From assembly GCA_001724265.1 (NCBI GenBank), contig MEDY01000127.1, forward strand, positions 49,260 through 69,259: DNA of 20,000 bases. Direction: 5' to 3'. Of this stretch, positions 1 through 20,000 are shown piece after piece (positions within the stretch are counted from its first letter, which is position 1; each line of letters begins with the position of its first letter). The notes below the pieces were generated by a model, which was given only the letters and a program-made list of their open reading frames with translations, searched no databases and had not been told where the DNA came from. The position numbers and the translations under genes were made by a program. This DNA is from Rhizaria sp. SCN 62-66 (taxonomy: Eukaryota).

Positions 1-64
1 TACTGGACCCCTCGTTCTGTTCCGACTGGCTGCCGATCACAAAGCTGCTCTCTGCACCGGAAAG

Positions 65-3000
65 ATGGCCACGCATCGGTTGACTCGGGTTTTCGCCCGT
101 ATTCAGCGCGCATGCAACGCCGCAGTCCTTCCCTTTTCTCCTGCGTCTGCTCTTGCTCCTGCACATGCAGTTGCATCGACATCGACTTGTAACACACCGA
201 GTGCTGCTACTTCTTCTTCTCCTCACGCATCACCGGCACCGAGCGCTGGTGTTGTGTGCGATGTTGCGACTGCGCGCGCAATCTTTCTCGCTGCTCTTCG
301 CACCTCGCTTTCTCGCAGCGAACACGTTTCTCAAGCAACATTCAACAGTACAAGCAGTGCTGCTAACGCGGCTGCTGTGATGATTGCTGGCACTAGCGCG
401 GGCGCATTTGCAACATCTATGTTCAAGCCTAGCCATGCTGTGCTCGCCCAGTCTAAGAAGCACCAGAACAAACACAGCAACAGCAACAGCAACAGCAACA
501 ACAATAGCAACGGAAACGACTCTGATAGCAAGTCGACTCTCAACAGCGCTGCTGATGGCCAGCCGACCGCTGCCGCGAATGCCAGCGCCGCCGAGCCTCC
601 CAGCAAGCGCGCGTCTCTGGCCACTTCTGCCCGGTCGCTCTTCTCCCGCATCCAGTCCGCCGCCAACACCATGAACGAAGCCAACCCCAAGAACCCTAAG
701 AACAGCAGCAACAACAAGAGCATGGCCAGCGCTAGCTCCTCCCCTGCCGGCGCGCCTTTCGCCGACCTGCGCGAATATAAGCCGCTGTCCCCGCATCCGA
801 ACGCGGGCGCGGGCGCGGGGTCGCGGTCCGCCCACGCCCGCCACCAGCAGTTCCAGCAACAGCAGCAGGCCAAGGCGGAGGCGGCGAACCCGGTGGTGCC
901 GATGCCCAAGATGGGCTTCCCGGTCATCGGGCTCGTGCTGCTGGTGCTGGTGCCGGTGTTGCTGGCCGCCGCGCAGAGCCCTCGCGCGCAGGCGCAGTCG
1001 CCGGAGAGCTACGACAAGACGTACGGCAGCAAGGACTCGAGCAGTGAGAATGCTGTTAATGCGAGTGCGAGTGGGGGCAGCGTATATTAGGCGAACCGTC
1101 TTCCGAATAACGACGATCACACCGCGAAAGTCCCTTCAGCAAGCGCCAACAACAGTAAGAGTGTCGTATCCGTTGTCGAGAGCTCAACAACAACAACAAC
1201 AACGATCACGACGACGACGACAGTGTCCGACACTGCGACGGGGGAGACCGGTGATCTCAACAGCGGCAGCAGCAGTGACCATGAGCAGCAGCTTAGAGCG
1301 CCCCTGCACCGGACTGCCCTCAGCACATAGGCAACTAGACTCCCATTAAACTCCCACAATAACAACACTGCCAGCGATGAGGTACGTACAGTGAAGGCGC
1401 GTGCGCTGTCGCTCGCCTACTTAGCCTGTGTCGCTGCCCCCATGAAGCTGTTGGCGGCCACGGCGCGGTCGCTGCGCTTTACGATCCTCTTGATCCGCTT
1501 CCTGCCTCTCTTGGCGCTCGTCGCTGTCTGCTACGCGATTCCGCCCCCTCTTTACGACCAGTCGCACAGCGGCGCTGCGAACGAGGGCGAGCGGCGACCT
1601 AACTTTTACGAGCGGCTAACTTTATTCACCAACACGGCGCTCACGCGCGCGCTGGCCCGCAGCGGCCCCGCGTTCGTGAAGCTCGCGCAGTACGCATCGA
1701 CGCGGCCCGACGTGTTGCCACACGCGCTGTGCACGCAGCTGGGCGCGCTGCAGGACGACACGGAGCCGCACTCGTGGGCCGAGAGCGAGAAAGCGCTGGT
1801 GAGAGCGCTCGGGGAGGACTGGGAGGATGTGCTTTGTATCAGCGAGCATGATAAGCTCAAACCGGTCGGATCTGGGTGTATTGCGCAGGTCTATATGGGC
1901 AAGATGCGTTCTCCTGACAAGAAAGCGACCAAAAGCAGCATTATGACGTACAGTGCTCACCAGAACGCTGCTCACAGTCATACCTGCTCTGCTCACGGTC
2001 ACTTCGCGTCGGCCGATGCGGATAGGTTTGACTGGGATGACGTTGCGATCAAAATCATCCACCCGTCGGCACAATGGGTTCTCTCCCGTGACCTGGCCAT
2101 TGTGCGCACTATCGCACGTCTTGCATGCTATATCCCGCCGCTGCGGGATTTTTTTGCACTGATGCCGCCCTTGCAGCTCGTGCACGAGTTCGAGCTGCTG
2201 ATGTAGTGCCAGCTTGATTTGCGGCACGAGGCCGAGAACATCAACATGATGCGGCTTAATTTCGGGCTTGATACCCCGCAGTCACTGCAACTCCGCAGCA
2301 AGGGGTACATCACCAGCAACAGTAGTAGTGGTCTCCGCAATAGTGTTAATGCTCCTCCTAAGTCCCGCTCCTCGTCGCTGACTGCTTCTGCAGCCTCTAC
2401 AGCTCACGGTCATCAGAGCGGGCAACAGGCACCTTCGCCCGAGGCTGGCTATGTGTTCAGCCCCGTGCGCGCCATCGTACAACACCCGTCGTCTCCGTTC
2501 AGCATCGAGTTCCCTTCTGTCTACACGGCCACGCCCAGTGTGTTGGTGGAGCGGTTTCACTGGGGACTGCCGGCGTCGCACCTCATCGCGTCCACGCTGA
2601 GTGACCGTGAGCTGGAAGAGCACGCGACGGACTATGAGCAACAGAAGCTCGGTTTGAACAGTGGCAGTGGCAATATTAGTGGCAGCGACGCGAATAAGAA
2701 GATCGATGCCAGCAGGGCGCAGGAAGTTAAGCCGCCGTCGACAACGTCGTTGCAACACCTGCTGTTGCGTAACATGACGGTACAACAGCGCGAGACCGTT
2801 GCGAAAGAGGTTGCTGCCACCGGTCTCAACGCGTTTCTGCTGATGCTATTCCGCCACGGGTATTTCCACGCTGACTTGCACCCCGGCAACATCATCATCG
2901 ATCTCGGATATGACTGGCCACCACCTTGCACGGTCACTGTGCGTAACAGCAGCGAAACCCACAGTCAGTGCAGCGAATGCGCCCACAGCAGCCGCCCCGC

Positions 3001-4249
3001 TGCCACCCGTGGCGCTCACAGGCACTACGACACGGCGACGGTGACGTCTGCGACTGAAAGCGACATTAGCAGTTGTCTCGACGCGTTGGCTACGGTGCAT
3101 GTGTCAGACGACGCAGCTGCTGCCAGCGCAAAGCAAGCGAACCAAGAGCAGCTACACTACGTCAACACCATTCTTCACAGCAACAACACGGTCACAGACT
3201 TTCGCAGTAGCAACGGCAACAACGATACTGCAATTGATAACGTGAGTGTTCGCCCTGTGGCTACTGCAATCAAGGCATCTGTGTCATCTGTGCTGTCATC
3301 TCTCTCACAGACAGTTGCTGCGGCACTCTGTGAGAACAGCGTTTACAGGCAGTTCTACAACAGCATGGCTTGCAACGCGCCGTCGCTCACCCTCAAGCTC
3401 GGCCTGCCTACGCCGACCTCGACCTCAAACAACGATGACACGCCTGCGGACACCAGCGGCGGCTTAACTTCGACCACGGTTGATGCTCTCGTCTTCGAGC
3501 CAGCGTTGCCGTTCGCCCCGTTGACAATGTTCCCATCCACCGTGTTCCAAGCCTTACACCCAAACGACTCGCGCTTACACGAGGCCTTTGCCGCCGACCA
3601 CCCCTTAGCGTACCAGGCGTGGTACTTAGCCCACGGTCTCCCGCTGCCCCCGCGCCAGCCGCGGCTCATTCTCATCGACGCCGGCATGACAACCCCTCTG
3701 CTCGACAGCGAAATGGTCAACTTCCGCGACTTGTTCTATGCTGTTGCGCTGGGCAGGGGCAAGGAGGCCGCGGAGATGATGGTCGACCGCGCCCCCACGC
3801 GGCCTAACTTACCGCCACGGAGCCCGGAGTCGCGACAGCAGTTTGTCGACACGGTCTCGGCGTTGATCGACAAGGCCGCCAGCGCGGGGTTCAAGCTCTC
3901 CTCCCTCGGCGTGGTCGAGACGCTGCAGGGCCTTGTCACCGCTGCCAGGACGCACCTCGTGCCGCTGGATCCGGCGTTTCTCTCTGTCATCGTCGCTGTG
4001 ACGGTGACCGAAGGCGTCGGCCGCTCGCTCGACCCCAACGTCGACATCGTGACGCCGGCGATCACTGTCGTGGCCAAAGCGAGGATTGATGAGCTGTTGG
4101 CGCAGCAGACGTGCAACTTAAGCCGCCTGAAGAGGCTTGGCGGCATGGCGGGATATAACACGAGCACTGTCGAGGGCGCTCTTGCAGAGACCGCGGCGGA
4201 CGCCACTGTGGGGGTTGAATCTCCCGCAGCTGAGAAGAAGACTGAGTGA
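65..4249 (+). CDS. ABC1/UbiB (aarF-domain) atypical protein kinase, ADCK2/Cqd1-like; 1394 aa if the three in-frame TAG codons (1088-1090, 1328-1330, 2204-2206) are read as sense
   Basis: ORF-track pieces 65..1090, 1391..2206 and 2219..4249 share one frame, and the gaps translate openly apart from TAG. UbiB motifs occur in order: GPAFVKLAQYASTRPD, PVGSGCIAQVY, VAIKIIHP, EFELLM*CQLDLRHEAENI, FHADLHPGNI, LILIDAGM, EGVGRSLDPNVDI. The Arg/Ala/Ser-rich, acid-poor N-terminus resembles a mitochondrial presequence. Ends TGA 4247-4249. The kinase call is firm; the exact start at 65 is less so. Confidence 0.88.
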
Positions 4250-4393: not shown

Positions 4394-7300
4394 TCAAATC
4401 CTCTGCTGCTACTGCTGCTGTACCTTTTGCTGTTGGCGCTTCTTGTCTTCCTCAACGATTGCAGCCCACTTGGCCAGCCTCGCCGCCTCCGCAGCAGCCT
4501 CTGCCGCTTGCTTCGTGCCCTGCCCATGCTTGGTGACTGCTGCCGCTGCCGCCGCCGCCGCTGTTGCAGCAGCTGTGGCAGCTGGCGCAGTACCGCGTGT
4601 TGAAGAAGAGCCTCTGACGCTGGTGCTGCTGCTGATGTTGCGTCCAACAATTTCATCATCATCGCTCACGTCAATCTGTTGTGTCGGATCAAAGTCAAGC
4701 CGCATATTGACATTTACCTTATTTCTCGGCACACGAGTCTGCGCGTTGTTGTTGTGACTCGACTGGGACTGTGTCAGCGACTGAGTCTGAGACTGCGGCG
4801 ACTGCCCGTGCGACAGCGCATGCAGCGCCTGCGCCCTGGCCGCCGCCCCCGCCGCCGCAGCAGCGGCCCCCTTGGCGCTGGCTTCCGTCGCGGCCGCCGC
4901 CGAGGGGCGCACGGCGGGCCTCGCGGTGCCGTCATTGCCCGAACCGACCTTGAACGGTGCCGTCGCGTGGCGGTTGCTCGTCCCGCAGCCGCAGTGCACG
5001 CCGAGAGTCGTGTGCGTGAGGTGAGCGGTGCAGTCGCGCGTATGAGTCACAGCGTCCGTGCCGTCGTTATGTGGAGACGCATCATCAGGAGTTTGCATCG
5101 GACCCTCGGCATCATCACAGGAGTTGTGAACGTGCTTGGCGTTGTGCGTGGATGTGGGTGAGCTAGGGTTCACATTCGGAACGAAGCCGGCTTGACTTGC
5201 GATATACTGCTGCCGCTTCAACCGCGCTTCAGCCTCCGCAAGCGTTTGCCTCAGCATCACTTGCCTTCCTGTCTCACCAGTGTGCGCACCGACAAACGCA
5301 CCGCGCGCCCGCGCCCGCGACGGCGACGACAGAGCGAGCGCGGACGGCGCCGCAGCGGGCGCGGCGGCCTCGGTGGCGGCGGCCGGAAGCGGCACAGGGC
5401 CGTTGCTGTTCGTGCAGTTGGTCGCAACGACAACAGTGTTGCTTTTGTTCTCATTGCTGGTGCTTTGCGTGACGTGGAAAGGCGGCGTTTGAAGCGGAAT
5501 TGTGCGCGTTGTCGCAAGACGATCGCGCAAAGTTAAACCGCAATTATTGTTGTTCACGGAAGCAACAAGCGCAGCGGCTTCAGTGGACAAGCCAGCTGAT
5601 GAGCCATTGTTGCACGAGTTGCGGTGCAGGAGAGATGCCAGCAAAGCGTCGTCGTCCTCCTTGCTGTATTCATCATGGCTGCCGCTATAACCATCAGAGC
5701 TCGGATCATAGTCGTCGACCGCGTCAGCGTCATGCATCCTGTTGCCCGCGTTCGCATTGTTCGCATTAGCATCACTCTGCGACTGCGACTGTGCGAGCAC
5801 ATGCGAGTGCGATTGTGAGTTTGCACCTTGTTGCTGCTGATGCTGTTGCTGTTGCTGTTGCTGGAGCGAAAGTAGCGAATGGGGCGTATGCGTGAAACTG
5901 ACAATTAACCCACCATGCACCAGCACAGTCCCGACATTGGCTACACCAGCCACCACAACCCCAGGCGCAGTCTGCTGCCGTTGCCGCTGCTGGTTCTGGT
6001 TCAGATTCGACATGATGAGCTTCCTGGTTAGCCTCGCAACTGTAATCGCTTGGCTCGACTCGACGCTCGGCGTTACTTGCGACGGACCCCGGATCACGCG
6101 CACAGGCGCATCGCCGGGCGCGGCTTGACTTAAATCATACTAGCTGCACTGCTGCTGCTGGTGATGGGGGTTGCGCACGAGAGGAAACTTAGCGCGGGGG
6201 TACTTGCACGTGACAGCAGGCGCGGTGTTCACATTCGATGTCGCGCTTCGAGAGCTCTCACCACCGGGGTTCTGCTGCTGATGATCGAGATCATCGTGAT
6301 CGCTATCGTGTGCGTTCTCACCTCGGTCAAGCGGCCCACGCCAGAGCAGGCCCTGTCGGGCATCAGCGCTGGCCTGCGCTAAATCGCCCCACCACTGACC
6401 CTCGGTGCTGTTCTCGGTCTTCGCCACCGTCTCGGCGGCGTACAAATCCTATCCGCTACTGTTGCCTTGAAGAGGGTTCACAAAGTATCCGCCAGTGCTA
6501 GCGCTGCTGTTGCCAACACGGTGTGATTTGGTGCGCTTGATCAGCGCGGGCTCCGGCCTCGCCCGCGGCACCTTGGCCGGCATCGGCTTGGCCGTTGCTC
6601 CCGCCAGGTCCGGCCCGTACACCGCCGACATCGCAGTCGCGGGCCCTGGCCCCAGAGACGACTCCGCGAGCGGATGGCTCGCCCAGTCGATCGGGAACAC
6701 CACCGACGCCGCGGGGACCGTGCCGGCACTCGCGGACACCGGCGGCATCGCAAGCCCCTCCGCAGACACGTGGGATTGGGAGCCAGGAAACGTGTGAGTC
6801 ATCGGTACCGGTGCCGTGCGTTCTAGAACAGCCTCGCGCGCCATGGCGGCGACGCGTGCGCCCGCGATTTGCCTGCGGTTGCGGCCTGTGGCAGCCACCC
6901 GCACGCCGAGGCTCAGCGCCTGCGCGCCTTTGCCGGCCGCGGCCGGGCTGCTGAGGCTGCTGGCCGCGGCGATGAGATGACGCGTGTTGGCGCGCGCCGT
7001 CATCGATAGCGACGAGGCGTGGTTGCTGAGCGCGGCGCCGGAGCAGTCGCTCGCGACGGCCGGGTTGCTGTAGCTGCGGACGTCGTTCGCGCGAGTGCCC
7101 GCGCCGCGGCTCGTCTGGGCGCGTGCAATACAGGCGGCCGTTTTGTGATTGTGATTGTCGTTGTTGTTGATGTTCGAGTTGGGGTTTGCTGCGAGTGCGC
7201 CGTGGTTGGGGACAGCGGCGGCAGTGGCGACACCGCATCCTACGCCGACGCCGGCAGCGGCGGCCCTGTCCAGCAGCGGAGCAATGTCCCTGCGGAGACG

Positions 7301-11113: not shown

Positions 11114-13060
11114 ATGTCGTTCTTCCCCCCGTCTCAGGACGGCGCTGGCGTGGCCCCTGCTGGCGCACTGGCCTCCACGAGCGACTTTCGCGACTCTCGT
11201 GACGGTCGCGACAGCCGTGATAGCCGCAGCCGCGACCCCCGCGACTCCCGTGAGTCTCGCGACGCTCCCCGCAGCAGCCGCGGTGGCAGCCGCGACCGCG
11301 ACAGCCGCAGCCGTAGCCGCGACCGCGACGGGAACCGTCGCAGCTCGGTTGGCTCTGGCTCTAGTAGTTCGCGATACGACCGTGAGCGCTATGACCGCGA
11401 CCGCTACGACCGTGGGTCGACCGGCCGCTACGACGATCGTGACCGATACGTCGTCCCCAGCAGCAGCGACCGTTACTCTTCGAGTAGCGCCGACCGCGAC
11501 CGTGAGCGTGACCGCGACCGTGACCGTAGTGACCGTGACCGCGAGCGTGAGCGTGAGCGTGAGCGTGAGCGTGAGCGTGAGCGTGACCGCGGTCGTGGTG
11601 GCCGCAGCGACCGCGACCGTGACCGTGACCGTAGTGACCGTGAGCGCGGTGGCGGTGGCGGTGACCGTGGGCGCGATTCGTACCGCGGTGACCGCGACCG
11701 CGACCGCGCGAGTGACCGTGAGCGCGGCAGTGACCGTGAGCGTGACCGGCCCGCAGCCTTCGACTCTGACGCGGTGGCACGCTCCCTCGCTTCCGGCGAC
11801 AGCGCCCCTGGCTCTGGCTCGAGTGCGGCTGCTGCGGTGCATCCCTCCCGGGCTGGCCTCGTGGGCTCAGCCTCCGCGGCCCCCCGCTTCAGCCACCAAA
11901 CCGACTCTGCCGCCGCCACTGGCTCCACTGGCCCTGCGGTGCCCAACTCCGGGCTCAACCCGATCCTCGTCGCGCAAACGCGTCTCTCGCGCCGCATCTT
12001 CATCGGCAACCTGCCCGCGCACCCCGCGCTGACTGACCGCATCGTGCAGCAGTTCTTCGAGCTGTTCATGTCGCAGCGCGGCTTCACGACCCCCGGTCCG
12101 ATCATCAACGTCGCGCTCGCCGCTGAACGCACCTACTGCTTCGCCGAGCTGCGGTCCGTTGCCGACGCCGTGGCGTTGGTGCTGCTGCTTGACGGGCAGG
12201 AGATGGGCGGCCGCCGTCTGCGCGTGTCGCGCCCGCGCGACTTCACCCCAGCCCCGCCCGCGCTCGCCAATTTCATCGTCGGCCTGCCCCCGGGGTCCTT
12301 CCTCCCGCCCGTGTCGACGCCGGTTGAGGCAGCGCTGCTCAACGCCACCGTCGCCGCGCAGCTCAACTCGGCCGCGGCGCTTGCCGCGCTCCCCGCACCC
12401 GTGCAGAGCGCGCTCACCGCCGAGCTGGGCCAGATGGGGCTGCTGACCGCGGTCACGGCGGCGGCCAAGATCGCGCCCGTGCCAGTGCCCGTGGACCCCG
12501 CGACGGGCCGGGTCACCACCGGCAGCGTCGTCGTGCTCTCGCACCTGCTCGCGGAACACGTGGCCCCCACCGCGACTACCCCCACGAGTACCGCGGATGC
12601 CGTCGAAACTGCGGCGTCTAAGGGGGTACTTAGTCCGCTGAGCGACTCGCGCGCGTGGTTGGACCTCGTCGACGACATCCGGTCCCAGCTCACCACGACC
12701 GTGCTCACGGTCACCGCGGCGGCCGGCGCGCCCCGCACCGCCAACAGCGACCGTGAGCTGCAACGGCCTGTGCTGCGTGTCATCGTGCCCCGCACCGCGC
12801 CGTTCGACCCCGCCGTGCTGTCAGAGGAGGCGGGGCGCGGCGGCGGCGTGGCGAGCGACGGCAGCGAGGTGGACCTGGCTGCGGACTGTGGTCCCGTCAA
12901 TGCAGCCCACGCGGGCTCAGTCTGGGTGCTGATGAGCTCGGAGCAGGGCGCGCGCGCAGTCGTCGAGGCAATGCACGGACGTCTGTACCGCAGGAACAAG
13001 GTCGTCGCGACTTTTGGTACGATGGAGGAGTTTGAAAAGCTTCTTAGGAACTCTGTGTGA
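11114..13060 (+). CDS. U2AF2: U2 snRNP auxiliary factor large subunit (U2AF65/U2AF2)-like protein, divergent, 648 aa, intronless CDS
   Basis: N-terminal RS/RD/RE region. RRM1-like TRLSRRIFIGNLP...YCFAELRSVADA...LDGQEMGGRRLRVSRPRDF matches recalled U2AF65 TRQARRLYVGNIP...FAFLEFRSV...LKIRRPHDY. C-terminal UHM-like region: VVVLSHLL...DLVDDIRSQL...VLRVIVPR...GSVWVLM...AMHGRLYRRNKVVATF. Ends TGA. Confidence 0.8.
   Translation: MSFFPPSQDGAGVAPAGALASTSDFRDSRDGRDSRDSRSRDPRDSRESRDAPRSSRGGSRDRDSRSRSRDRDGNRRSSVGSGSSSSRYDRERYDRDRYDRGSTGRYDDRDRYVVPSSSDRYSSSSADRDRERDRDRDRSDRDRERERERERERERERDRGRGGRSDRDRDRDRSDRERGGGGGDRGRDSYRGDRDRDRASDRERGSDRERDRPAAFDSDAVARSLASGDSAPGSGSSAAAAVHPSRAGLVGSASAAPRFSHQTDSAAATGSTGPAVPNSGLNPILVAQTRLSRRIFIGNLPAHPALTDRIVQQFFELFMSQRGFTTPGPIINVALAAERTYCFAELRSVADAVALVLLLDGQEMGGRRLRVSRPRDFTPAPPALANFIVGLPPGSFLPPVSTPVEAALLNATVAAQLNSAAALAALPAPVQSALTAELGQMGLLTAVTAAAKIAPVPVPVDPATGRVTTGSVVVLSHLLAEHVAPTATTPTSTADAVETAASKGVLSPLSDSRAWLDLVDDIRSQLTTTVLTVTAAAGAPRTANSDRELQRPVLRVIVPRTAPFDPAVLSEEAGRGGGVASDGSEVDLAADCGPVNAAHAGSVWVLMSSEQGARAVVEAMHGRLYRRNKVVATFGTMEEFEKLLRNSV
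11543..11584 (+). repeat. (GAGCGT)7 hexamer repeat encoding (ER)7, within a wider GACCGY/GAGCGT repeat region (~11490-11750)
   Basis: Seven perfect units counted directly; in frame with the RD/RE region of the U2AF-like CDS. Confidence 0.93.
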
Positions 13061-13291: not shown

Positions 13292-13968
13292 ATGCAGTCT
13301 TCCCGCGCTGGCCAGAAGGACGTTGCTCGCGTCTACGAGCGTCCCGGTCTCTCGAGCGACGAGATCGATGAGCTCTCCGAGGCGTTCAAGCTTTTCGACA
13401 CCGAGCAGTCCGGTACGTATTGACTACGCTCTCGCGTATCTCTTTGTCAGTGGTCCACCCTTTTTGCTGATGAAATGCTGTCTGTAATCTTGCCGCGCGC
13501 CTCCTTGCTTGCTCGCTCTGACTCCGTCTTGTTACTTTCTGTCCTTGACCTCACCCACGCTAACACGGCTGGCGCTCTCTGTTCATTCCCTGTGTAGGTT
13601 ACATTGATGCTAACGAGCTCAAAGCCGCGATGGAGTCCTTGGGCTACCGCAACAAGAACCGCATGGTGTACAACATGATCGAGTCTCTTCCTTCTGGCAT
13701 GATCAACTTCGATCGTTTCCTCGACCTCATGACGGCCCGCATCTCCGACACGGACTCGCGCGAGGACATTGCCAAGCTCTTCCGCCTCTTTTCCAACGAC
13801 GGACAGTTTATCACCGTGGATAACCTGCAGATGGTAGCCAAGGAGCTCGGTGAGCCCATGTCACAGGCGGAGCTGCGCGAGATGATCGAGCGCGCCGACG
13901 CCAACGGCGACAATCGCATCGATTTCGAGGAGTTTTACGCCATCATGACTAACAAGAGCTTCGATTGA
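13292..13968 (+). CDS. Centrin (EF-hand protein), ICL1-like subfamily, 163 aa; exons 13292-13412 and 13598-13968
   Basis: Spliced translation: MQSSRAGQKDVARVYERPGLSSDEIDELSEAFKLFDTEQSG/YIDANELKAAMESLGY...FLDLMTARISDTDSREDI...VAKELGEPM...EMIERADANGDNRIDFEEFYAIMTNKSFD. YERPGL, ELKAAM, MTARIS and FYxIMTxKxF match recalled Paramecium ICL1-type centrins. Ends TGA. Confidence 0.93.
13413..13597 (+). other. Spliceosomal intron in centrin (185 nt, phase 1)
   Basis: GTACGT donor, GCTAAC branch-like site at 13559-13564, TGTAG acceptor; removal restores the EF-hand 1 loop DTEQSGYIDANE. Confidence 0.92.
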
Positions 13969-14755: not shown

Positions 14756-16493
14756 TTACTGCGCGTCCGCGAAACCAATGCGGGAGACGATAAGGTTGAG
14801 GTTCTCGTCCGCGGTGGGGTCGATCTGGAGCAGGTGCAGGAACATGTGCGCAAAAGTGTCAGGGATGACGCGCGCACCGATGATCTTCGCGATGAACTCC
14901 TTCGACAGACGCAGTGCGCCGTGGGACGCAGCCGCGTCCGACTCGGGCTCGGCCGTCACCGCCGCGGTGTGAATGGCGGCGACCAAGGCCTGCGCAGTGG
15001 CCAGCGGCACCGACTTGCGGAGGTCGGCGATGATGGCAGAGGCGTGCTGGAGAGAGAAAGCCTTGACGGTGTTCTCCATGAGCATCGCCACGGTCATGGG
15101 GCCGACGCCGCCGGGCACGGGGGTGATGAACGAGGCGGCTATTAGCGATGATAGTCGCATCACAAAAAGAAAAAGAAGAATGCGCGATACAAGTCCGGGA
15201 GAAGCAAGTGTTTAAGTGCATTGAAGGGCGAAATGAAAAGAAGAAGGTTTAGAAAGTGAGACTTGGAGGTATAGATCTGTGTCGATTGTAAAAATAAAAA
15301 TAGATTTGATAATGCGAGACAAATGCGAGTATTATTTGCGGCGTACCGGCGCGGGCGGACTCGAAATCGACGTCGCCAACGAGGCGGTGGCCGGTCTTCT
15401 TGGTCTCGTCGTCGATCGCGTTGATTCCGACGTCGATGACAACGGCACCGTGGCGCAGCCACGAGCCCTGGACGAAGAGAGGGCGGCCAATGGCGGCAAT
15501 AACAATGTCCGCAGTGCCAACGACGGCGGCGAGGTTAGCAGTCTTGCTGTGGCACATGGTGACGGTGGCGTTCATGCCCTATTTCGCAGGAGTGTAATTT
15601 TAGTTAACACAGGAATCGCGGTAATAGTAGTAGCAGTCGAATAAACAGTGAAATAAAAAGAAGGAAAATCAAGTAAAAATGAGGAATCGTGCAACTTTGA
15701 TCATCGATTCACGAAGTAAACGCCACCCAGGAAGGTTTTTGTTCGCGCGATGCAAACTGAAGGGGATGACGAGAGAATGACGACAGTGCATTCCGGCCTC
15801 TCTCACGGAATAAATCCAGAGCATACGGAGTTGAAATAAAGCAAATAGCTACACATAATAGCATTATATACATTTGTCGTGCATTTATGCAGAAAAGATA
15901 CGTACCTGAAGGAGCATGGAGACGGGCTTGCCGACGAGGTTGGATCGACCGATAACGACAACATTCTTGCCCGCAACGGTAATGTTGTACTGCTTGAGCA
16001 GCTCAATGCAGCCCAGCGGCGTGCAGGGGATCAGTGGGGCATTGATGCCGTCGCGGAACAGCAGACCGGCGTTCATGGGATGCAGGCCGTCAACGTCCTT
16101 CTCGGGGGAGATCTTCTCGATCACGCCGACAGTGTTGAGGTTGGCAGGCAGGGGAAGCTGGATGAGGATGCCATTCACAGCGGGGTTGGCGTTAAGGTCG
16201 GAGATGAGCTTCTCCAAGTCCTCCTGAGAGACATCAGCGGGCAGCGCGTGCGTCTCGTGGAGGAAGCCGACCTCCTCGCACGCCTTGGCCTTCATGCGGA
16301 CGTACGTCGCGGAGTCCTTGCGGTCGCCCACGATAACGACGTCGAGGCGAGGGGTGAAGGTGCTCTCGTCGGCGCCGCGGGAGAGGCCGGAGCTCTTGAA
16401 AGCAATGACCTCCGCGGCAACGCGCTCGCGAACAACGCGGGAGCCTTGTGCACCCGAGATAAGCTCAGCAGTCGTGCTCAGAGCGAGAGACAT
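14756..16493 (-). CDS. folD: Bifunctional methylenetetrahydrofolate dehydrogenase/cyclohydrolase (FolD), 400 aa; exons 16493-15906, 15578-15347, 15138-14756
   Basis: Motifs [66 protein letters not shown] and [17 protein letters not shown] join in frame across two GT-AG introns. Ends TAA 14758-14756. Confidence 0.95.
15139..15346 (-). other. FolD intron 2 (208 nt, phase 1)
   Basis: G|GTACGC donor and GCTAATAG|CC acceptor; joins DFESARA to [11 protein letters not shown]. Confidence 0.88.
15579..15905 (-). other. FolD intron 1 (327 nt, phase 0)
   Basis: CAG|GTACGT donor and AAATAG|GGC acceptor; joins MLLQ to [11 protein letters not shown]. Confidence 0.88.
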
Positions 16494-17689
16494 GGGGAAA
16501 CTGGGGGGAGGACTGTGCCGATATTTCGGGTAGAGAAAAGCGAGACGCAGACAAAATGAGGCGGAGTGTTCCAAATGGAAAGATAATCTTCAATGTAATG
16601 GAAATGGAATTACAACAAAAAAACTGCCAACAACGAAGAAATAACGCGAATACAAGCTGTCAAAGTGTGGCTTCACCGATTTGCATAATCAGCCCGTCGA
16701 CCTGCCCGTCCACAGTTCCGAAAAATGCAGTGTAACACTTCTGTTTTCTGCACTTTTTCAGCTTGTACAACATGTAACTGATGCAGACAGCTGTACGCAT
16801 TTTATCCGGCGTTATAACACGTCATACACATCTGACTACGATGTTTATGCAGAAGTTATCGCTTCTTGTGCTGAGATATAAGAGGTATTGTTCCAGGGGC
16901 TGATACTGTGTTACACGTGGTAGAAAAGGCATATGTCAATGATTATAAGACATATCCCACTTAAGCATTGCTAAAATATAACACATACCACACTGCGTAG
17001 TCTTTCCAAACATGGCATTTTATACATGCGTTCTCATGTACATTTCAGTTCTTCAGGCGCTTCATAATGACTTGAGTAAGCTACTTAAAGTTATCATTTT
17101 TAAGTCAGTTTAGGCACAGAAATGCGTGCTTAGCTATAACCGTAACTATATCATAGAGAAACAACGTTATCATACTCTATTTACCTTGGGCTTTGAAAAA
17201 AACCGATAGATTTGCGTCAATAACCTAGCGATATTGTACAAGTTGCAAGAGTAACATGGGTTAAAACATTGACAATAGTGACGGTATACATTCCAAGAGT
17301 ACTTGAAGCGCAGGCATTGGTGCCTTTAGAGCAAATAAAATTGCATTTGGCACGTCATGCTGCAATATGGTTTGAACCGCACTTAGTTACAGCTCAGTAC
17401 GTTTGCGGCGCCGTTGCAGCTCTGCGTGGGCTGTGGGCGACGTTGAACGTCGACGTGCCGAGACGAGGGCTGCTCAATAATGAATACAGTGCACTGAACC
17501 TGCCGTCTATGAACATAGAACACCATGCAGAGATTCAAAGAATACTATTCTAAGTTTTTCAATTGTCTTCGGTCCAATATGTCTTGTTTGAACATCATGG
17601 TATCACTTTAAAATCATCTGCGGCTTTTCGCCGTTTCCCCTTGTCCGCACTTCTTCCTGACGCCCGCACATGTTCCTAGACCGAGTGCA

Positions 17690-19201
17690 ATGTCCGCTCC
17701 TCGCAACCAAACCGCCCCTATGACCCTTGCCGCCGGCGCCGCTGTTGGTTTGGTCGGCATCATCATCGGTTACTTCGCTTCCCAGGTCTCCCCATGCAAG
17801 ACCCTCCTGAAGTGGAAGTCTTCCGCCTCCGCTGCCCCCGCTGCCGCCGCCACTGCGACCACCGCAATGACTGGTGCCGCGTCAATCGAGCACGACAAGC
17901 CCGTCGAGACGCGCATGTACGAGCAGGCTAAGGCTCTCAACGAGTATCTTCTGCTGCACTACGGCGAGGCCTTCTCTGGCAACTTCGCGCCCAACGCGGA
18001 CGGCACCTCCTACTCCCTCGACTTTGGCACTGAGCTCACGAACGAGTTCGGCAACTTTGGTCTGTTTGACGTTAAGACCGGCAAGGTCAACGCCCCGCTT
18101 TTCCCCACGTTTGCGCTTAACTTCCCTGCGCGCGTCGCTCAGCTCGCCGCGCACTTCGCTGGTACGCCTGGCGTTCTTATCTAGACAACTTTTAACTTCG
18201 TTTAACACAATGTTTCTTGCGCAAGTCTTGCCCGTTAGCAACAAAATGTTCCCAATATCCGGAACTAATGATGGTACAACTTTGACTTGTAGTTTTCAAT
18301 GCGTACATATAGCAGTATATTTACATGTTTGCCTTTAAATTTATTTGTTGTTTTGCTTGTTCTGACTCAGGCGTCGCGACCTCTGCCGCGCCCGCCGGCC
18401 GTGCTCTTGACGTCGGCTGCGCTGTCGGCCGCACTACGTTCGAGCTCTCCAACTTCTTCGACACTGTCATCGGCATCGACTACAGCAACTCGTTCATCGA
18501 AGCGGCGAAGCTGTTCGGCACTGGCGCCATCTGCCCCGTCACCGTTCCCATCGAGGGCGGGCTTAACTTCAAGTCCACCGTCTCCATCGCTGGCCGTTTC
18601 CGCCCCGCCGCGTGCTCCTTCCAGGTTGGTGACGCCGGCAACATGGACGTGGCTGCGCTGGGCAAGTTCTCGTGTGTGACTGCCGCCAACCTCATCGACC
18701 GTCTCCCGCGTCCCCGCGCCTTCCTCAAGGTACGTTCTTGTTCTTCTGAAACGTCGTACAGTGTTCACCAATATGACGTATAAGATGACAACACGTTTAT
18801 ATTACACAGTTATGATGTTTTGTTCCGAAATTATTTGATCTTGGCCTTTTACTACCTCGTTTTAAACTCGTCACTCACTTTTTCATGTTGCTCTATCTGT
18901 TTCTGTCGTCCTCACCCAGGCGTGCGCGCACCTGGTGGCCCCCGGCGGCGTCCTCGTCATCACGTCCCCGTACACCTGGCTTGCCGAGTTCACCCCGCGC
19001 GAGGAGTGGCTCGGCGGCGGCTACCCCACCGTCTCCGCCGACGGGACCGAGAAATTCACCACCACCTTCGAGGCCCTCAAGACAGAGCTTCTGGGCGATT
19101 TCGAGCTCGTGCACCACAGCCACATGCCGTTTTTCATCCGTGAGACCGGCCGCAAGAACCAGTTCACCCTCGCGCACGCTACCGTGTGGCGCCGCAAGTA
19201 A
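17690..19201 (+). CDS. Class I SAM-dependent methyltransferase resembling the C-terminal (mercaptohistidine N-methyltransferase) domain of ovothiol synthase OvoA; 370 aa; exons 17690-18161, 18371-18729, 18920-19201
   Basis: YE..KALNEYLLLHYG, NFPARVA, RALDVGCAVGRTTFEL, GIDYSNSFI, FQVGDA, ANLIDRLPRPRAFL, PGGVLVITSPYTWLAEFTPREEWLGG and PFFIRETGRKNQFT match the recalled OvoA C-terminal pattern. N-terminal hydrophobic segment AAGAAVGLVGIIIGYFA. Ends TAA directly after ATVWRRK. Confidence 0.87.
18162..18370 (+). other. Methyltransferase intron 1 (209 nt, phase 1)
   Basis: G|GTACGC donor, AT-rich body, TCTGACTCAG acceptor; frame preserved on splicing. Confidence 0.88.
18730..18919 (+). other. Methyltransferase intron 2 (190 nt, phase 0)
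   Basis: AAG|GTACGT donor and CTCACCCAG acceptor; joins AFLK to ACAHLVAPGG. Confidence 0.9.
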
Positions 19202-19807
19202 GTTAAGTCCCCTCCAAATCGTTCACAAGCTGCAAAGCGCAGGTACCTGAGGTGCGTGAATGACTTCGATGTGATGTGTTCTAGCAATGCTGCTGCTTTC
19301 GATACTATCGTTGTTCCTGTGATTCCTTTTATTTTTTTCTGTGCCCATGTCACCCTACTTACATCTCTTGAGTAATACTGACGTACGACAAAACTTAGAC
19401 TGTCTGATTGTCAGTTGACGTGACTTTTACCCCTATTGTTAATTTTTGAAAGTCTTTATTTCGTTCTATAAGTTTGCTCTCCCTATTTTATTACGTTATT
19501 CTACGATACCAAGTTTCTTGTTTTCAATTTCACCACCGCATGTTGTCTGCAAGGGGGGCTTATATAGCTGTTGATACTTGTGTTGCGGGATTAGAACTAA
19601 AGTGAACGTTGTATTATTGTTATGTGCCAACTTTCAAGACACTTATGTAGCAGTAGTTGTTCCTCTCTCAATTCAATGTTATATCTCCACAATACACATA
19701 CATACCGATATCACGCAATAAGACCGAATGTTTTAAGACGTTAGGCAGAGAATGCGAATGCGTCGACTCACTAAAGAGAGTGTTTGTTACGATAGCTACT
19801 GAGCTGC

Positions 19808-20000
19808 TTAGGTCATGGTGCAAGCAGCCTTAGTGACGGAGGCAAGAATAATGCCAATAATGAGGCCGTAGAGACCGAGGGCTTCGGCGAAAATGAGAAT
19901 GAGGACCATGGGGACGTAGAGCTTCTCGTGCTGGCCGGAGGCGCGGACACCGGAGTCACCGATGATACCAATGGCGAGGCCGGCAGCGAGGGAAGAGAGA
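19808..20000 (-). CDS. V-type H+-ATPase 16-kDa proteolipid subunit c, 3' part (runs off the window; absent from the ORF track)
   Basis: Manual translation [63 protein letters not shown] contains the hallmark [15 protein letters not shown] with the proton-carrying Glu. Stop TAA 19810-19808. Confidence 0.95.

Follow-up and report, generated by a model that had tools for sequence, protein, structure and literature searches.

UAG as a rare, probably glutamate-specifying sense codon beside UAA and UGA stops in the genome of Rhizaria sp. SCN 62-66

To our knowledge, nuclear genetic codes nearly always give UAA and UAG one shared meaning, and we know of no NCBI translation table in which UAG encodes glutamate (Glu) while UAA and UGA both terminate translation. 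The closest described systems are those of Rhizaria sp. exLh, in which UAG encodes leucine (Leu), and Iotanema spirale, in which it encodes glutamine (Gln); both have made UAG alone a sense codon while retaining UGA as a stop next to the dominant UAA (PMC5304391). In the current study, we describe a similar arrangement in Rhizaria sp. SCN 62-66, starting from a stretch of 20,000 nucleotides (the window; GenBank assembly GCA_001724265.1, contig MEDY01000127.1, positions 49,260–69,259 of the forward strand) that forms the end of contig C127 in a eukaryotic metagenomic assembly of 34.9 Mb and 714 contigs (G000). Judged from the sequence, there is a probability of roughly 70% that in this nuclear code UAA (the main stop) and UGA terminate translation, while UAG serves as a rare sense codon for Glu.

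At the sequence level, the genome groups with exLh and Iotanema, as it combines UAG at sense positions with UAA and UGA as stops and a tRNA with a CUA anticodon; this tRNA was predicted in those two organisms, whereas its gene was found here, and the amino acid differs, being Leu and Gln there and most likely Glu here (PMC5304391). The release factor eRF1 is changed at the same position as in Iotanema (T32S here, T32G there) but keeps the L69 that is altered in exLh (L69A), and UAG, which occurred in most of 71 exLh orthologues, is far rarer in the present genome (PMC5304391). Viewed more widely, UAG-only reassignments have been listed to Leu (exLh and TARA ciliates), Gln (Iotanema, Hartmannula, Trochilia, and Protocruzia), and serine (Ser; Scotinosphaera), with UAG=Glu appearing there only together with UAA=Lys, in PL0344 (PMC11687900, Discussion). 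The phyllopharyngean ciliates (Leu or Gln), Protocruzia tuzeti (Gln), and Scotinosphaera (Ser) share with our genome a reassigned UAG and UAA as the main stop, whereas roughly one in three genes of the present organism stops at UGA; the phyllopharyngean ciliates, moreover, use UAG in 78–91% of genes and for a different amino acid, compared to 31 of 408 coding segments in the present case (PMC11687900). The tRNA(CUA) of Oligohymenophorea sp. PL0344 (UAA=Lys, UAG=Glu; PMC10553269) is most similar to tRNA-Glu, as here, but UAA is sense there, only UGA stops, and there are 10 CUA genes, whereas our genome stops mainly at UAA and yielded a single CUA gene. Blastocrithidia (UAR=Glu, UGA=Trp, UAA also a stop; abstract of PMC12153298) shares UAG=Glu, but UAA is also sense there. 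No report that pairs UAG=Glu with termination at both UAA and UGA emerged from the literature searched, in which subscription journals were thinly covered and supplements lay outside the search. Peritrich ciliates (UAR=Glu) read UAG as Glu, as is proposed here, but treat UAA as a sense codon. The known UAG-only exceptions being Leu, Gln, and Ser, Glu in a non-ciliate would add a code variant.

An earlier note on the window, made from its letters, had claimed that TAA is a true stop in three of its genes and is decoupled from UAG. The stops and in-frame TAG codons of the window are as follows.

19199–19201, plus strand: TAA stop of an OvoA-C-terminal-like methyltransferase (TIGR04345; exons ~17690–18161, 18371–18729, and 18920–19201)
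19808–19810, minus strand: TAA stop of V-ATPase subunit c (PF00137; gene runs past the window edge at 20000)
14756–14758, minus strand: TAA stop of FolD (gene start ~16494, two introns)
13966–13968, plus strand: TGA stop of a centrin-like EF-hand gene
13058–13060, plus strand: TGA stop of an RS/RRM (U2AF-like) gene (11114–13060)
4247–4249, plus strand: TGA stop of an ABC1 atypical kinase open reading frame (ORF; 2–4249)
4394–4396, minus strand: TGA stop of a low-complexity ORF (~7963–4394)
1088–1090, plus strand: in-frame TAG in the ABC1 ORF, identical in two contigs spanning the site, one from X4 and one from X9
1328–1330, plus strand: in-frame TAG in the ABC1 ORF, identical in an X4 contig
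2204–2206, plus strand: in-frame TAG within the Pfam ABC1 domain
6449–6451, minus strand: in-frame TAG in the 7963–4394 ORF
6140–6142, minus strand: in-frame TAG in the 7963–4394 ORF
4409–4411, minus strand: in-frame TAG in a CAG run, four codons ahead of the TGA stop

All three TAA codons lie where the earlier note had placed them, and the downstream changes it had described were borne out: past each stop the C-ending codon bias is lost, with GC content at third codon positions (GC3) passing from 0.86, 0.72, and 0.86 to 0.42, 0.38, and 0.44, and AT content rises, overall GC passing from 0.58–0.60 to 0.38–0.45. The family-typical C-termini, which had been claimed for the methyltransferase and V-ATPase c alone, were also recovered. 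The TIGR04345 match reaches model position 242 of 242 at residue 92 of 93, one before the stop, while V-ATPase c ends 9 residues past the last aligned position, compared to 8 in the solved plant and yeast chains and 2 in the mammalian chain (the PF00137 match ends 11 residues ahead of the stop). FolD has no conserved end; it continues for ~95 residues past the FolD models (14759–15045, minus strand) with full coding bias, and this extension found no match in Pfam, NCBIfam, or Atlas. Its TAA therefore does not stand at a conserved C-terminus, and the evidence for it is the codon bias. A related contig from run X5 tracks the V-ATPase c gene through its TAA, the listed differences falling at third codon positions, and parts from the window sequence right after this stop. 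The four further genes of the window end in TGA, and two of these carry three in-frame TAGs each. At the centrin gene (13960–13968, plus strand), a related X5 contig appears to stop at TAA where the window has TGA. The ovothiol-type methyltransferase (17690–19201, plus strand) is a stand-alone gene with a hydrophobic N-terminal segment and without the sulfoxide synthase part.

Outside the window, gene ends were called in ~0.95 Mb of the ~0.98 Mb examined, using a codon-bias caller trained on known frames. Among the 66 ends called, 41 are TAA, 23 TGA, and 2 TAG, and both TAG-called ends stay open for 3 and 19 codons more, to TGA and TAA, respectively; given that 217 of the 981 stop triplets counted in the downstream background are TAG, its absence from 64 ends has a probability of ~1e-7. 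TAA is thus the main stop in the sampled part of the genome, and it is followed by G at 29 of 41 gene ends, compared to 60 of 300 in the background (p=1.5e-10). The separation of UAA from UAG therefore extends beyond the window, in that TAA and TGA end genes, no gene end was found at TAG, and neither sense UAA nor sense UGA was seen in the sampled genome. Frequent internal TAA in conserved genes, which the earlier note had named as evidence that would speak against it, did not emerge: such codons occurred in 5 of 287 Pfam matches (seven families, whole assembly), all five in intron-like stretches, as placed on translation rather than RNA from where the domain breaks into an AT-rich, intron-like segment. 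A UUA-anticodon tRNA gave no match with the pattern that detects the CUA gene, although intron-bearing or unassembled genes would escape it. With TAA ending 41 of 66 genes and no UUA tRNA by that pattern, NCBI table 6 (UAR=Gln) is excluded for the genome as it had been for the window. A check for tandem stops over the first ten codons returned 22 TGA, 7 TAG, and 4 TAA in frame versus 23, 14, and 16 over the two other frames, counts too few to use.

Within genes, internal TAG is scarce, numbering at most 34 in 174,367 predicted codons, and some of these are intron acceptors or lie in wrong frames. The same set holds 7,344 GAG, 923 GAA, 6,085 CAG, and 36 ATA codons, so that UAG would make up ~0.4% of Glu codons. 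The sequence shows TAG inside the reading frames of conserved genes, the single eRF1 located among them, and no gene was found to end at it. Dynein heavy chains were considered as a source of conserved sites and set aside (18 matches with 2 TAGs, the inspected ones being intron-related), as were pattern searches for TAG in a GC3-rich context, which returned mostly wrong-frame sites (~6 of 14 first-priority and ~1 of 12 second-priority sites were real). Contigs from X9, a polyA library, that match the window retained introns, and RNA contigs were unspliced or sparse. Two public entries of 42 residues, P0322 and P0421, belong to this organism’s NEK-like kinase; P0322 ends exactly at the in-frame TAG, indicating that standard gene calling truncates TAG-bearing proteins.

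One CUA-anticodon tRNA gene was identified (G000:C84:76008–76080, minus strand, corresponding to L035:1489–1561, minus strand; Rfam 58 bits), with a 4-nt variable loop and a T-run behind the gene. The nuclear genes on either side of it are intron-style and rich in GC3, the contig shares the codon bias, and a DNA search for paralogues returned this gene alone, compared to 8 copies of Glu(CUC). Aligned against 31 distinct tRNA sequences of the same genome, it scored 47 with Glu(CUC), 38 with Glu(UUC), 37 with Asp, and 31 and 25 with Gln, and it has the first five acceptor pairs and the U1-A72 acceptor type in common with both of the genome’s own Glu tRNAs. External matches agree: 3 of 3 checked plasmid matches are tRNA-Glu (74–77% identity over 68–70 nt), as are all 5 annotated ones among the 12 phage matches listed, with weak E-values. 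The D and T arms are closer to bacterial tRNA-Glu, with identities of up to 77% across 70 nt, than to the organism’s own (score 47 of 73), and the gene could be either a horizontal acquisition or a retained ancestral form.

In the mechanism that we propose, this tRNA-Glu-type molecule would be charged by glutamyl-tRNA synthetase and would insert Glu at UAG; candidate genes for this enzyme and for its glutaminyl counterpart lie on contigs C207, C27, and C9 of G000. Its C34 is expected to pair with UAG and not with UAA, owing to a C34:A mismatch, as has been pointed out for other such codes (PMC5304391, section 9; PMC11687900, Discussion); UAA and UAG can therefore part without any special eRF1 geometry for UAA.

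The residue most likely inserted was examined in homologue alignments at four TAG sites. The eRF1 column holds E112, D10, V1, and Q0 (123 high-scoring segment pairs), the PDI column E15, S11, K7, A5, D4, and Q3 (n=56), and the UBE2J column D36, N27, H16, T16, S15, E8, G2, and Q0 (n=120), while that of the NEK-like kinase, for which the search query itself carried E, holds E30, Q19, L15, and K15 (148 of 150). The nearest kinase orthologue, P0270 (79% identical over 598 residues and 88% near the site), carries E, with identical residues on either side, and E also occupies the site in each of the three proteins that come next in similarity and cover it. The Leu of the exLh code was rejected, as Leu is scarce in the four columns (0 of 123 in eRF1, 0 of 120 in UBE2J, 1 of 56 in PDI, and 15 of 148 in the kinase) and the tRNA, with its 4-nt loop, lacks a long variable arm. 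Asp, although common in two columns, is less likely than Glu in view of the tRNA scores (37 versus 47) and the E of the nearest kinase orthologue. Flanking context favored Q over E at 23% of 48 unfiltered TAG sites, compared to 20% of Glu codons and 49% of Gln codons, a result that mainly says “not Gln-like” more than “Glu”. Whether UAG is read completely or leakily, these comparisons make Glu very probably the amino acid that it specifies, a point on which the earlier note had named no residue.

Several observations weigh against Glu, and some of them are what would be expected if UAG encoded Gln with UAA and UGA as stops, the code of Iotanema, Hartmannula, and Trochilia. False sites entered the context test, which ranked H, Y, D, I, and E no more than 4 log units apart; strong conservation is seen in just one of the four columns, and homologues do not count as independent observations; the kinase TAG at L062 is uninformative on the residue; and P0004, the closest eRF1 relative, carries Val at the TAG position, where the column is thus not invariant in the lineage. 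Pfam scoring of Q versus E is flat (E ahead by 0.3 bit summed over 10 scorable of 16 sites), with PDI at 0.0 and the ABC1 site at −0.8 bit, in favor of Q. Four TAGs lie in Gln-rich tracts, among them CAG runs (window 4411–4409, L081 twice, and L114), and in the ubiquitin-like gene L266 a TAG stands opposite the Gln of its paralogues. A Gln code would need the Glu-like CUA tRNA to be recharged or a Gln-type CUA tRNA to have been missed, for which there is room in that the pattern misses intron-bearing genes and 63 of 506 tRNA candidates were scored. We nevertheless hold Gln to be unlikely, since the tRNA body is of Glu type in both own and external comparisons, each of the four columns either lacks Q or holds it as a minority residue, and E stands in the nearest orthologue; the tract sites may be accounted for by CAG-to-TAG, a single transition, in low-complexity sequence that could tolerate a Gln-to-Glu change. 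The standard code, with the in-frame TAGs being assembly errors, pseudogenes, intron remnants, or products of a bin of mixed organisms, is very improbable. Several TAGs flagged within Pfam matches are indeed intron acceptors, and the gene models come from a metagenomic assembly without spliced-RNA confirmation, but TAG is missing from gene ends (P ~1e-7) and turns up repeatedly, across many contigs, in conserved ORFs that are intact, contigs from another study carry two of the window TAGs unchanged, and the CUA tRNA is well formed and sits between GC3-rich intron-style nuclear genes of the same codon bias.

The reassignment might also be incomplete, with eRF1 and the single-copy tRNA-Glu(CUA) competing for UAG and some UAGs still ending translation; the great rarity of UAG, and its placement mostly at variable sites, would make such an ambiguous intermediate tolerable. 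This agrees with the at most 34 TAGs in 174,367 codons, set against the 78–91% of genes using UAG in the phyllopharyngean cases (PMC11687900, Discussion), with one CUA gene against 8 for Glu(CUC), with the conservative nature of T32S, and with the absence of TAG from invariant catalytic positions at the kinase, DEAD, and kinesin sites inspected. We judge it quite unlikely, as no gene end stands at TAG among 66, the only eRF1 found needs its own UAG read through, and ATA is equally rare (36), so that GC bias alone may explain the rarity; on the amino acid, it overlaps with the complete Glu code that we prefer. A more specific scenario, which we regard as rather unlikely, is a young, leaky capture of UAG for Glu, in which a single, possibly horizontally acquired tRNA-Glu(CUA) would compete with an eRF1 that T32S has made partly blind to UAG. 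A feedback loop would then arise from the UAG in the N-domain of eRF1, with excess eRF1 truncating its own synthesis, for which the autoregulation of bacterial RF2 offers an analogy.

One eRF1 locus was found (G000:C63, four exons, stop TAA). Its in-frame TAG sits at the position of human E107, where termination would cost three quarters of an essential protein; by simple arithmetic, any 441-codon gene has a ~8% chance of such a codon, and a regulatory role is no more than suggestive. In yeast, E107A lowers readthrough and does not harm termination (PMC4381064), which together with the Val of P0004 indicates that the column can change. The protein keeps E55, NIKS, L69, S70, and YxCxxxF but carries three changes, T32S, G57S, and T58K, that set it apart from all 115 homologues compared, each of which has T at position 32. 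P0004 (84% identical) shares T58K and retains T32 and G57, making T32S and G57S the lineage-specific candidates. Among 80 metagenomic loci containing eRF1 relatives, one unspliced contig is identical (L144, probably not independent), and the others reach at most 71%.

Position 32 has a record in the literature: T32 is reported to bond the G of UAG (PMC5304391, section 9, citing Brown 2015), T32A tends to UGA-only recognition in human eRF1 (PMC3384315) and is lethal in yeast (PMC4381064), and PMC12440015 holds no passage on T32, G57, or T58. Further eRF1s with T32S may appear in Figure S2 of PMC5304391. T32S is a conservative change, as Ser retains the hydroxyl. In our proposal, T32S, G57S, and T58K would impair the recognition of UAG to a degree that allows translation to yield full-length proteins. 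The earlier note had gone further, to an eRF1 that recognizes UAA and UGA but not UAG; this is plausible, yet, in view of the T32A effects and of the hydroxyl kept by Ser, it has the standing of a hypothesis, and the same pattern in the sequence would be expected if eRF1 stayed partly active on UAG and a CUA tRNA competed with it.

The presence of a candidate tRNA and a candidate eRF1 in one genome makes two questions testable. One concerns the eRF1 residues (T32S, G57S, and T58K) by which UAG is told apart from UAA and UGA, and bears on amber suppression in eukaryotic genetic code expansion; the other, prompted by the rarity of UAG here, is whether a codon acquires its new meaning by way of an ambiguous stage. 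Should the organism be a sainouroid, as entertained under leaky capture, exLh’s group would hold a second, different UAG meaning.

The organism itself is probably a rhizarian flagellate, tentatively a cercozoan and possibly a member of Helkesida/Sainouroidea. Sequencing runs in which the window occurs carry the labels bioreactor, wastewater, or activated sludge, and at least 11 dynein heavy-chain loci in the assembly suggest a flagellate. Eight of the dynein heavy-chain genes (L037–L044) are nearly intron-free open frames of 2,600–5,200 codons, and three others are intron-rich. Ubiquitin genes (L264–L271) are divergent single monomers in several dispersed copies, starting M-S-MQIF and with a three-residue tail past GG. 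An extra residue between polyubiquitin monomers is a rhizarian marker described in PMC6133090 and PMC12930898, and the extra Ser before MQIF, seen at ORF starts and at no monomer-monomer junction, fits that insertion. The same papers describe divergent 18S genes with group I introns for Helkesimastix-like cercozoans (PMC6133090, PMC12930898). An 18S rDNA in the assembly (L034:1501–5945; G000:C706) is 4.4 kb long and very divergent, with four group I introns, on a contig that may or may not belong to this organism; the first of these introns carries an ORF for a His-Me finger homing endonuclease (L034:2158–2634; PF05551, E=1e-14).

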